Below, piece by piece: positions 1,125 to 51,051 of a DNA stretch of 64,000 bases (within the stretch, counting starts at the first letter, position 1; every line of letters begins with the position of its first letter). Under the pieces are notes generated by a model. It was not told the DNA's origin, made no database searches, and saw nothing but the letters and a program-made list of their open reading frames with translations. The position numbers were made by a program, and so were the translations under genes. Source of the DNA: an uncultured SAR86 cluster bacterium. GTDB taxonomy: Bacteria; Pseudomonadota; Gammaproteobacteria; Magnimaribacterales; AG-339-G14. Where the stretch lies: assembly GCA_902570035.1 (NCBI GenBank), contig CACFWO010000004.1:22144-86143 (forward strand), read 5' to 3'.

Positions 1125-1340
1125 GTGAACGCCTCAGACGCATTAATAAAAACACTAGTTGCCAATGGCTTGGAAGTTATTTTTGCAAATCCTGGCACTT
1201 CTGAAATGCAATTAGTAGTTTCAATAGACAATAATCTAGAAATAAGACCAGTATTAGGATTATTTGAAGGAGTACTTACTGGAGCCGCAATAATTAGTGA
1301 TTTTATTAACGGTAAACCTGTAACCGATTTAATCAGATAG
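1125..1340 (+). pseudogene. Truncated acetolactate synthase-like TPP enzyme (N-terminal ~55 aa only)
   Basis: FANPGTSEM...VLGLFEGVLTGAA matches the TPP-enzyme N-terminus. Similarity stops abruptly and a stop follows at 71 aa; full-length enzymes are ~500 aa. Confidence 0.75.
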
Positions 1341-48562: not shown

Positions 48563-49129
48563 TTAATCTCTAGCTAGAAAGATAAGGAAAAAAGAATTTT
48601 TACTTCGGGTAAAGCAAATAAACTCATCATAAGAAATTAGAGCATGAGACCACTCATGCTCATATTTGATTGCCTTGATGTCTTTAAAAGATTCAGAATT
48701 TTCTAAAAATACAAATTTATAACTATCAAAATAAATTTTATTTACTCTTTCGTTAAATTTTCCAATTGATTCATTATTAATGACATTCTTATATTTGGTT
48801 TTTGCATTAACTACAGAATCAACTGATTTAAAAAAAGAATTATTAGGAGGTATTTCAAGGTAATTTTCTACTTGAACGTTTTTAGATAGAAAAGGCCCAT
48901 GATATTTTGGGAGATAATTAAAGAAATTCCCAGTTAGTTGGAAATTAAAAAAAGGACTAGCCTTGTATATTTCTAATAATTTTTTTGATGAATAAGATTT
49001 ATTATTATTAATGGAAAAAAAAGAAATTAAACATTGGAAATTTGTACCTAATCTAAGATAGTCAGTACCATTTAAAAGTAAATCTTCATTTTTATGTGAA
49101 GAAGATTTTTTACTTTTTTCAAATTCCAA
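48563..49129 (-). CDS. Hypothetical protein
   Basis: 188-aa ORF overlapping the trpS stop; no family recognised. Confidence 0.6.
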   Translation of the reverse strand: MEFEKSKKSSSHKNEDLLLNGTDYLRLGTNFQCLISFFSINNNKSYSSKKLLEIYKASPFFNFQLTGNFFNYLPKYHGPFLSKNVQVENYLEIPPNNSFFKSVDSVVNAKTKYKNVINNESIGKFNERVNKIYFDSYKFVFLENSESFKDIKAIKYEHEWSHALISYDEFICFTRSKNSFFLIFLARD

Positions 49130-50102
49130 TTTTTTCCTTAATTTGCTCTAAATTTTTATTAGCTTCATCTCTAGCTTTAGTTTCACCAGCCTCTAATGTG
49201 TCTTCTATCAATTTAGGATTATCTATTAATTCGAAATATTTATCTCTAAGAGGTAATATTTCTTGATTAATTTTTGAAAATAATTTTTTCTTGGCGTCCC
49301 CCCAACCAATTCCGTCTTCAAACTCTTTTTTTATCTCATTTATTTCTTCTTCATCAGAAAAGTGATCAAAGTACTGAAAAATAATTGAATCTTTTGTTTC
49401 TTTTTTTTCACCAGGTTCTTTTGAATCGGTTTTAATTTTATTGATGGATTTTTGCAAAGTTTTTTCTGAGGAAAATAAATCTATAGAGTTATTGTAACTT
49501 TTGCTCATCTTTCTTCCGTCTGTACCAATTAATAAATCGAGAGATTCATTAATTATAGGCTCAGGTAATTGAAAAAAATTTTCATAAGTTTTGTTAAATT
49601 TATCTGCTATGTCACGAGTAATCTCTAAATGTTGTTTTTGGTCCTTTCCTACAGGAACATATTTAGGATTGAACATCAAAATATCTGCTGACATCAACAC
49701 TGGATAACTAAATAAACCGTGAGAAATGCCATAGTCTTCATCGTTTTTATTTTCTTTATTTAGATCAACTGCAGCTTTGTATGCATGCGCCCTGTTAAGG
49801 AGTCCTTTAGGAGCCATACAAGACAAGATCCAATTTAATTCAAGTATTTGTGGAACTTTCGATTGCCTGTAAAAAAGAGAGTTTTTACTATCAAGTCCGC
49901 ATGCTAACCATGTCGCAGCTATCTTCATGGAAGATTCTTTTACGGCGTTAGGATCATTAACTTTTATCAGAGAATGATAGTCAGCTAGAAAGAGATAGGA
50001 TTTGAATTTCTTACTTAGCTTTATAGCAGGTTTTATAGCTCCAACGTAATTGCCTAAATGAGGCGTTCCAGTAGTTGTAATACCTGTAAGAGAGGAATCC
50101 AT
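49119..50102 (-). CDS. trpS: Tryptophan--tRNA ligase
   Basis: HLGN (HIGH), YPVLMSADIL, VPVGKDQKQH and KMSKS. Confidence 0.96.
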   Translation of the reverse strand: MDSSLTGITTTGTPHLGNYVGAIKPAIKLSKKFKSYLFLADYHSLIKVNDPNAVKESSMKIAATWLACGLDSKNSLFYRQSKVPQILELNWILSCMAPKGLLNRAHAYKAAVDLNKENKNDEDYGISHGLFSYPVLMSADILMFNPKYVPVGKDQKQHLEITRDIADKFNKTYENFFQLPEPIINESLDLLIGTDGRKMSKSYNNSIDLFSSEKTLQKSINKIKTDSKEPGEKKETKDSIIFQYFDHFSDEEEINEIKKEFEDGIGWGDAKKKLFSKINQEILPLRDKYFELIDNPKLIEDTLEAGETKARDEANKNLEQIKEKIGI

Positions 50103-50113
50103 TATATAAGTAT

Positions 50114-50142
50114 AAAAAAAAACACCACAAAAGTGGTGTTTT
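50114..50142 (-). terminator. Rho-independent terminator
   Basis: Minus strand AAAACACCAC-TTTT-GTGGTG followed by T9. It ends 11 nt upstream of the trpS ATG. Confidence 0.85.
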
Positions 50143-50299
50143 ATCGAAGTTGAAGGGGTTCAGTGGGTTCTACTGATGCAGGCGATTGACCCGTCTCCCT
50201 GCAGGTGGCTGAGTTTCCTCAGTTCTTCTCACCCTTCTTCTTCTCATCTTTTACTTCTGTTTAATCGTCTCGAGTTAATTAAATTTAGTTAAAAGACTG
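50114..50299 (-). ncRNA. Candidate structured non-coding RNA (~185 nt), family unidentified
   Basis: GC-rich multi-hairpin core (50146-50243) in an AT-rich genome, with a GAAA tetraloop hairpin, a candidate promoter upstream and a terminator downstream. Confidence 0.65.
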
Positions 50300-50305
50300 A
50301 TATTT

Positions 50306-50333
50306 ATACTAATGATTTTTTTGTTTGATTCAA
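50306..50333 (-). promoter_or_regulatory. Candidate sigma70 promoter for the ncRNA
   Basis: Minus strand TTGAAT (50333-28), 16 bp, TAGTAT (50311-06), with an AT-rich upstream region. Confidence 0.45.
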
Positions 50334-50420
50334 TACCTAAAATGCACTTTTTAAGATTAATTTCTTATTAAAAAAGTTTTTTATATTTATATATAAGATA
50401 AAAAATAAATTGGTTAATTT

Positions 50421-50951
50421 TTAATCAATTATAGAAAAGATTTCTTCAATTGAGTCATATAAATTGAACATATTGAATGTTTTTTCATTAAAAAAACCTT
50501 CATCTTTTGCGTGCTTAAGAAATATTTTTAGTGAATCATAAAAGCCGTTCGTGTTTAGGATAAAAATTGGTTTATCTATAATGTGAAGTTGATTCCATGC
50601 CATGATTTCAAAGATCTCCTCATATGATCCGACTCCTCCTGGTAACAAAATAAAACAATCAGCAGCATCAGACATAAGTTGTTTTCTTTCATGCATGGTT
50701 TGAACAATTTTTAATTCCTGGATACTCTCATGGCCTGCCTCCATATCAAGCAGTCTTTCAGTAATAACTCCATAAACGTCACCTCCTTCAGAAAGACAGC
50801 CGTTTGCGAGCTCATTCATCAAGCCTACTCCTCCTCCTCCATAAACAAGTTTATGGTTTGAGATAGCAATTTGTTTACCTAATTCAAAGGCTGTTTCGGC
50901 ATAAACAGAATCCTTACCAATTGATGAACTTAGAAAGACGCAAATATTCAT
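50421..50951 (-). CDS. LOG family (TIGR00730) nucleotide phosphoribohydrolase
   Basis: ICVF, LVYGGG, GLM, MHERK and PGGVGSYEE. The real start is ATG 50951; the ORF track extends it into the tRNA. Confidence 0.92.
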   Translation of the reverse strand: MNICVFLSSSIGKDSVYAETAFELGKQIAISNHKLVYGGGGVGLMNELANGCLSEGGDVYGVITERLLDMEAGHESIQELKIVQTMHERKQLMSDAADCFILLPGGVGSYEEIFEIMAWNQLHIIDKPIFILNTNGFYDSLKIFLKHAKDEGFFNEKTFNMFNLYDSIEEIFSIID

Positions 50952-50959
50952 TTTTATAA

Positions 50960-51051
50960 TGGCGGAGGGGGTGGGATTCGAACCCACGAGGCCATTTCTG
51001 ACCTGCTGGTTTTCAAGACCAGTGCATTCAACCAGACTCTGCCACCCCTCC
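50960..51051 (-). tRNA. tRNA-Ser (anticodon TGA)
   Basis: GGAGGGGTGGCAGAGTCTGGTTGAATGCACTGGTCTTGAAAACCAGCAGGTCAGAAATGGCCTCGTGGGTTCGAATCCCACCCCCTCCGCCA: long variable arm, TTCGAAT loop and encoded CCA. Confidence 0.97.

Follow-up and report, generated by a model that had tools for sequence, protein, structure and literature searches.

IMES RNAs rank with the most abundant transcripts of seawater. The IMES-5 family (Rfam RF02995) reportedly originates from the 2017 study of Weinberg et al., and at that time is said to have been known only from metagenomes. Here we describe an IMES-5 gene in a defined host: it lies on the minus strand, directly upstream of trpS (tryptophan-tRNA ligase), in a 64,000-nucleotide stretch (contig CACFWO010000004.1, positions 22,144 to 86,143; hereafter the window, meaning the whole stretch analyzed) from an uncultured SAR86 cluster bacterium. 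A preliminary description of the window, made from the sequence alone, had presented this region as a new structured RNA that could be either a free-standing abundant marine small RNA (sRNA) or a cis-regulatory attenuator of trpS. We read the locus as the single IMES-5 gene of its genome, with its own promoter and terminator, abundantly transcribed, acting in trans and not regulating trpS, and give this reading a probability of roughly 0.8. To what is known of IMES-5 we add its host (two families of one small-genome marine order), its single-copy status, its gene neighborhood, and the covariation of a pseudoknot.

In a full-text literature search we found no paper on IMES-5 or on IMES-1, a second IMES family; the main text of Weinberg et al. 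2017 does not contain the term IMES. The Rfam type line of IMES-5 reads "Gene; sRNA". Two further kinds of RNA offer points of comparison for the loop that we discuss below. The HIV-1 dimerization initiation site (DIS) is an element of the viral genomic RNA with proven dimerization, and its natural variants differ in the two central bases and remain palindromic. Its loop resembles that of IMES-5 in consisting of flanking adenines and a 6-nucleotide (nt) self-complementary sequence; dimerization is proven for the HIV-1 element and only inferred for IMES-5. OLE, ROOL and GOLLD are, like IMES-5, abundant and ornate noncoding RNAs of unknown function, and their symmetric kissing loops are palindromic; they differ in measuring 500-800 nt or more and in having assemblies solved by cryo-electron microscopy, whereas IMES-5 measures ~150 nt (bioRxiv 10.1101/2024.12.08.627333). 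That preprint also uses a switch from GC to CG at the center of the palindrome as an argument for intermolecular pairing in the kissing loops solved for OLE and GOLLD.

The RNA upstream of trpS is a full-length IMES-5 RNA

A cmscan search of the whole window returned IMES-5 as its sole non-tRNA match, scoring 137.3 bits where the gathering cut-off is 96.1, with an E-value of 4e-27. The alignment spans model positions 1-150 of 150 without truncation, and gives the coordinate key by which RNA position n corresponds to window position 50296-n. The preliminary description had called the RNA unannotated, while granting that a strong Rfam match would make it a known RNA rather than a new one; given the match, it is a known RNA. 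It had not recognized the RNA as T-box, 6S, SRP or tmRNA; there is no Rfam T-box match, and a separate 6S RNA (RF00013) is present in 5/5 genomes of four families (at C1:227207-227377 in the window's genome, G000). The presence of a separate 6S RNA also led us to reject a role for IMES-5 as a 6S stand-in.

The window RNA shares with the catalogued family the 5' hairpin with its loop AaCUCGAGAC, the closing helix P1 and three internal hairpins (P2 to P4), and we found no structural difference. It is the only IMES-5 copy in this genome, which comprises 1.14 Mb in 18 contigs at 35% G+C. The features of the locus are collected in Table 1.

Table 1. Features of the IMES-5 locus (window coordinates).
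Feature	Position	Strand	Evidence
IMES-5 RNA (RF02995), full length	50145..50295	-	cmscan, 137.3 bits
5' two-tier hairpin; outer stem 50295-50289/50254-50248, inner stem 50282-50277/50266-50261	50248..50295	-	double changes in 6/7 and 5/6 pairs (helices 1 and 2)
Hairpin loop AACUCGAGAC with 6-nt palindrome CUCGAG at 50274-50269; proposed kissing-loop dimerization site	50267..50276	-	conservation
P1, 5' strand GAAG-AA-GAAGGG	50232..50243	-	helix 3, 100% paired
P1, 3' strand CCCUUC-AA-CUUC	50146..50157	-	helix 3, 100% paired
P2 hairpin CUGAG-GAAA-CUCAG, GAAA loop	50209..50222	-	helix 4, 5/5 pairs changed on both sides
P3 hairpin, loop with GGGU at 50192-50189	50177..50203	-	helix 5, 7/8 pairs changed on both sides
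P4 hairpin, 7-nt loop with ACCC at 50168-50165	50160..50176	-	helix 7, 4/4 pairs changed on both sides
Kissing pseudoknot, P3 loop GGGU (50192-50189) with P4 loop ACCC (50168-50165)	50165..50192	-	helix 6, 99.3% paired
Intrinsic terminator AAAACACCAC-UUUU-GUGGUGUUUU and U9 run	50114..50142	-	stem-loop 50142-50119, T9 to 50114
Inferred promoter: -35 TTGAAT 50333-50328, 17-nt spacer, A/T-rich -10 region 50310-50303	50303..50333	-	conservation across genera
Inferred -10 box TATACT (50114-50109), 6 nt, ATG (50102-50100)	50100..50114	-	conservation
trpS (tryptophan-tRNA ligase), neighbor, not part of the RNA	49119..50102	-	Pfam tRNA-synt_1b, 2.3e-59

We searched 150 further genomes from four families of the host order, here called f1 to f4 (40, 40, 40 and 30 genomes; genome sizes 0.9-1.8 Mb). 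Homologues exist, as single copies, in f1 (32/40 genomes) and f2 (29/40), and many of the genomes without a match are incomplete. No true IMES-5 was found in f3, where the one match in 40 genomes is a 31.6-bit match that is IMES-1, or in f4 (0/30). The family was absent from 149 other families of the class, each represented by one genome, and a metagenome-assembled genome labelled Granulosicoccaceae, which has the closest named relative of the window's TrpS (56% identity), gave no IMES match. In metagenomes, a pattern scan matches at least 80 loci, and 78 of the 80 listed hold IMES-5; the IMES-5 pattern had 0 matches on viral contigs. A loose pattern for IMES-1 gave 120 matches in viral contigs, which we take to be chance matches because none of the 80 loci inspected bears the hallmarks of IMES-1.

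Covariation supports the four-way junction and a kissing pseudoknot

Each of the stems in the preliminary description is found in its place on the minus strand of 50100-50300, and the minimum free energy (MFE) fold of this 201-nt stretch reproduces the multi-way junction. The MFE is -53.6 kcal/mol, compared to -37.8 +/- 4.4 kcal/mol in shuffled sequences (z = -3.56), and 0/200 shuffles are as good. The RNA region is a GC-rich island as described, with 43.7% G+C against 33% in the window and 14% in the spacer upstream. A purine-rich 5' arm had also been noted; the arm is present, but it turns out to be the conserved two-tier hairpin at 50295-50248, within the Rfam model. Both the purine-rich AGAAGaAGAAGGGUGA segment and the loop of the 5' hairpin are present and invariant in 39/39 relatives.

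To score covariation, we built a covariance model from the 39 genome copies, aligned the copies to this model, and evaluated the 34 distinct rows. Since the alignment was fitted to the nested structure it leans toward nested pairs, and the pseudoknot lies outside the model. With this limit, 91.7% of alignment cells pair, where shuffles give 73.5% and sliding the partners gives 36-49%, and 30/44 pairs change on both sides; 0/500 shuffles reach any of these measures. Helices 4, 5 and 7 (P2, P3 and P4) all show double changes (Table 1), bearing out the stems proposed for them. P1, which carries an AA/AA internal loop, is far more constant: 9/10 of its pairs never vary, and the remaining one goes from G-C to A-U in three sequences and to G-U in two.

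The GGGU and ACCC loops of P3 and P4, proposed earlier as a possible kissing pair, pair almost without exception and show compensatory changes. Among the genome copies, a G-C pair becomes A-U in locus L010 and U-A in locus L027, and among the metagenome matches listed a third, independent A-U case occurs in L157 (AGGU/ACCU). The pseudoknot thus covaries here, and it is missing from the structure line of the Rfam IMES-5 model. An alternative GGUG/CACC pairing, also suggested in the preliminary description, did not hold up: none of its pairs changes on both sides, and the proportion of cells that pair, 86.8%, is the same as in the shuffle control.

IMES-5 has its own terminator and a conserved promoter-like region, and is highly abundant

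Upstream of IMES-5, a TTGnnn motif followed by 17 nt and an A/T-rich hexamer is kept in all genera that we read, and transcription is predicted to start within a few nt of 50295. A promoter placed earlier at 50306-50333 agrees with this cross-genus conservation, but not with a scan for the strict sigma-70 consensus, which returned 0 promoter sites at the IMES-5 locus. At the other end of the RNA, the hairpin at 50114-50142 is the sole terminator-like site in 49900-50600 (0.2 expected). Its stem and T9 are near-invariant in 28/29 f1 loci from four genera, and its T9 stops 11 nt short of the trpS ATG, as had been described.

In three metatranscriptome studies, the contigs over 50116-50291 reach ~10^2-10^4 times the depth of the flanks. 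Summed word depth, which pools related organisms, is 1.3e4-3.6e5 over 50160-50291, compared to 16-83 over trpS and 2-30 upstream. Depth is intermediate, ~1,400-2,400, in the bin that holds the terminator (50116-50159), and the bin at 50292-50335 is at baseline in runs X1 (2) and X3 (2.6) but reaches 4450 in X2. Contig ends at 50151-50155 and 50274-50284 bear adapters and are unusable as RNA ends. All 18 RNA runs on record that contain the stretch carry a seawater or marine metagenome label. These data fit the option of a free-standing abundant marine sRNA, and the conservation of the structure, along with a promoter and terminator belonging to the RNA itself, agrees with the earlier argument that retention in so compact a genome implies function. 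Together with the gene order described below, they indicate that IMES-5 is very probably a stand-alone, highly abundant structured RNA that acts in trans.

IMES-5 and IMES-1 share a common architecture

The weak IMES-5 match in f3 is a full IMES-1 RNA (RF02034, 188 bits), and matches in the reciprocal direction, of IMES-5 loci to the IMES-1 model, are likewise weak at 26-35 bits. Comparison of the two RNAs shows a common plan: both have a 5' hairpin with a 10-11-nt loop containing a 6-nt palindrome, a purine-rich linker, P1 followed by GGGUGAAAG, a CCACC junction strand and three inner hairpins. By eye, IMES-1 also has two kissing loops, GAGA/UCUC (GAAGA/UCUUC in L093), and it shares with IMES-5 a strong conserved terminator and the same host order. 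The two differ in length (~190 nt for IMES-1 and ~150 nt for IMES-5), in the sequences of their kissing loops, in their genomic sites, and in the palindrome, which is CUGCAG in IMES-1 of f3 and f4. By these matches and shared elements, IMES-5 is a sister of IMES-1.

IMES-1 scores above its cut-off in 31/40 f2, 35/40 f3 and 24/30 f4 genomes, and in none of the 40 f1 genomes (where four cross-matches fall on IMES-5) nor in the window's genome. Each family of the host order therefore has IMES-1, IMES-5 or both, and f2 is the family with both. In f2 (G043, G046, G049, G052 and G040), the two genes lie ~13.8 kb apart on the same contig and on opposite strands, and some f3, f4 and f2 genomes have two or three IMES-1 copies. 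Neither trpS nor the window's other neighbors were found in any of 50 IMES-1 loci. Genes of aromatic amino-acid metabolism adjoin IMES-1 or IMES-5 in three contexts: an indoleamine 2,3-dioxygenase homologue (Pfam IDO, 3e-87; L040:725-1861, f3), a prephenate dehydratase (PDT + ACT; L075:1743-2558, f4), and trpS (window 49119-50102). This pattern may be a coincidence, as other IMES neighbors fall outside it (ETF-QO/DUF1285, an M20 peptidase and a solute symporter).

IMES-5 is genomically independent of trpS

The preliminary description raised the question of whether linkage to trpS is conserved. It is in f1, where trpS follows IMES-5 in 29/29 loci, but it is broken in f2, where the gene order in 10/10 loci is LOG, IMES-5, a convergent gene for a LigT-like protein of 181-194 amino acids (aa), and trpS. 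The one convergent gene that we tested matches Pfam LigT_PEase with 61.8 bits. The start of trpS also differs between the families. In f2, trpS has its own A/T-rich promoter-like region and a GGAG-type Shine-Dalgarno sequence, with GTG or TTG starts in 9/10 loci. In f1, we found ATACT-N6-ATG in 28/29 loci and a spacing of N7 in the other, with an ATG start in all and no Shine-Dalgarno sequence. The f1 trpS mRNA would accordingly be leaderless, transcribed from a putative -10 box that abuts the IMES-5 terminator, and comparison with the Shine-Dalgarno sequence and GTG/TTG starts of f2 suggests that the trpS mRNA became leaderless in f1. Low-level readthrough from IMES-5 into trpS is possible.

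The f1 arrangement invites the idea that IMES-5 is there a cis-acting leader or attenuator of trpS, in which termination at CACCAC/GUGGUG would be tuned by Trp, tRNA-Trp or TrpRS and trpS expressed by readthrough. In f1 the locus does share with T-box and other aminoacyl-tRNA synthetase leaders a structured RNA and a terminator directly 5' of a synthetase gene. The distance from the 3' end of the RNA to trpS is 42-47 nt in 29/29 f1 loci, despite an upstream gene that varies among genera; the terminator stem, T9 and spacing (including ATACT) are near-invariant although TrpS proteins are just 57-64% identical; f1 trpS lacks a Shine-Dalgarno sequence and a consensus promoter of its own; and one RNA-library contig joins trpS to the 3' part of IMES-5. 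Unlike the synthetase leaders, however, the window RNA has no antiterminator. The MFE fold holds P1 and the terminator together in 23/25 distinct f1 RNAs, so that there is no switch-like alternative, and the one candidate for a competing pairing, GGUG/CACC, does not covary. The leader position is not conserved either, as the convergent gene intervenes between IMES-5 and trpS in every f2 locus. IMES-1 terminators are equally invariant (CAGAGC/GCUCUG or CUGAGC/GCUCAG) next to unrelated genes; terminator invariance therefore goes with IMES RNAs as such rather than with trpS control. The depth on IMES-5 is ~10^2-10^4 times that on trpS, and the TATACT-N6-ATG arrangement, in which the start is strictly ATG, is what a promoter for a leaderless trpS would look like. 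We therefore consider an attenuator, the second option of the preliminary description, highly improbable.

An IMES-5 that acts in trans could instead be a base-pairing sRNA that targets mRNAs through its exposed loop or purine-rich linker. The Rfam type line, the invariant unpaired segments, the RNA's own promoter and terminator, and its high abundance would all suit such a role, yet we found no gene for Hfq or ProQ in any of five genomes (G000, G016, G043, G041 and G042, from four families and four of them at least 95% complete) in a search whose controls recovered both in E. coli, and this speaks against an sRNA that needs a chaperone for pairing. Sites complementary to all 10 nt of the loop number three in the genome, both strands counted, against 1.4 expected, which is chance level, and one of these is IMES-5 itself; and in our judgement so elaborate a tertiary fold, with its invariant junction, is not usual in an sRNA that pairs through a seed. 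We think this role unlikely. Sequestration of CsrA by IMES-5 in f1 and f2 drew our attention because CsrA has the same family pattern as IMES-5, being present in 35/40 f1, 35/40 f2, 0/40 f3 and 0/30 f4 genomes; no search was made for other Csr/Rsm-type RNAs. GGA motifs are, however, not enriched in the RNA (3.21 per RNA in f1 compared to 3.38 in shuffles, and 3.9 compared to 3.23 in f2), their positions are unconserved and, by eye, not in hairpin loops, and none falls in the invariant segments. The common distribution may reflect one ancestral branch, and IMES-1 thrives in f3 and f4 without CsrA. A CsrA sponge is thus a very unlikely explanation. The CsrA gene of the window's genome lies outside the window, at G000:C4:116700-116843. 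Mimicry of tRNA-Trp or TrpRS was also considered and rejected, as by eye no CCA-containing loop is conserved across families.

Several observations concern the genes around IMES-5. The LigT/2H-type RNA phosphoesterase gene of f2 (L036:912-1496, and in other f2 loci) lies on the strand opposite IMES-5 and ends within a few nt of the 3' end of the RNA, and among five genomes searched this family was found solely in the f2 genome. On the upstream side of the window RNA, a LOG-family open reading frame (ORF) of 188 aa (50421-50987, GTG start as listed) overlaps tRNA-Ser(UGA) at 50960-51051 (minus strand), and its true start must therefore lie further downstream. The IMES-5 gene had been placed in the largest intergenic gap of the window, which is roughly right: this gap measures 318 nt (50103-50420), but the gap at 1118-1470 measures 353 nt when taken between ORFs of at least 90 aa. 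The latter gap holds a 71-aa ORF (1125-1340, plus strand) whose N-terminus, by eye, resembles the start of a thiamine-diphosphate enzyme, and which may be a gene remnant.

A palindromic loop may mediate dimerization

The 5' hairpin of IMES-5 presents the loop AACUCGAGAC, or in most f2 copies ACCUCGAGAC. Its central CUCGAG is present in 39/39 genome copies and, among the metagenome matches listed, in 73/73 copies that include the loop. IMES-1 has CUGCAG at this position in f3 (28/28 loci, with two short loci excluded) and f4 (11/11), and CUCGAG in f2 (10/10), the family in which it coexists with IMES-5. The two hexamers are both self-complementary and differ by a swap of the central two bases, and we saw no other form. 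Like the HIV-1 DIS, these loops thus expose a self-complementary hexamer and vary in a way that preserves the palindrome, here through one switch. By energy estimate, like loops would form duplexes of -9.5 and -9.9 kcal/mol, and the mixed duplex would have -1.1 kcal/mol.

Because adjacent bases cannot pair with each other within one loop, a palindrome that is kept points to pairing between molecules. We propose, at slightly less than even odds, that two molecules pair with each other through this loop to form a kissing-loop dimer. A wider and somewhat more speculative extension is that IMES-1 and IMES-5 make up a superfamily of self-pairing RNAs, core to the whole order, in which the loop serves as an "address" (CUGCAG or CUCGAG) that sets the partners; heterodimers would then be possible in f2, where both RNAs have the same address.

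Discussion

Our data place a single-copy gene of a catalogued RNA family beside trpS, and we favor the reading that this IMES-5 RNA is a product in its own right. In this reading, IMES-5 has a promoter and an intrinsic terminator to itself and accumulates to a very high level; it acts in trans and does not regulate trpS. The RNA has two modules. One is the 5' hairpin, whose loop AA-CUCGAG-AC presents the palindrome, and pairing between loops would give homodimers and, in f2, also heterodimers with IMES-1. The other is the four-way junction of P1 to P4, which has invariant junction strands and is locked by the P3/P4 kissing pseudoknot, and this compact domain would be the surface that binds a partner.

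A number of observations weigh against this reading or parts of it. In f1 the trpS ATG always lies 11-12 nt past the terminator (29/29 loci), and because of this fixed spacing trpS expression may be coupled to the IMES-5 transcription unit. Five of the seven f2 copies that we read first have no obvious terminator hairpin. The contig depths, being sums over related organisms, give neither ends nor strand; one of the four runs (X4) has no cover over IMES-5 and is not interpretable; and one X1 contig (depth 16.4) runs from trpS as far as 50169, which shows that there is some readthrough or carry-over of DNA. For the dimer, the palindrome switch is one evolutionary event, possibly older than the split of IMES-5 and IMES-1, and as a single event it carries little weight as covariation; a dimeric protein could equally well bind at a palindromic loop. 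We also know of no IMES RNA with a demonstrated function.

As the RNA was already in Rfam, its identification here is no discovery. What the locus provides for work on IMES RNAs is a concrete host lineage with single-copy genes, the kinship of IMES-5 with IMES-1, and a covarying kissing pseudoknot. The exact family-level co-distribution of IMES-5 and CsrA could also help such work, and the palindromic loop yields a dimerization hypothesis that is cheap to test. If the wider form of that hypothesis is true, the very abundant, active species would consist of RNAs assembled with one another, akin on a small scale to the quaternary RNAs OLE, ROOL and GOLLD.

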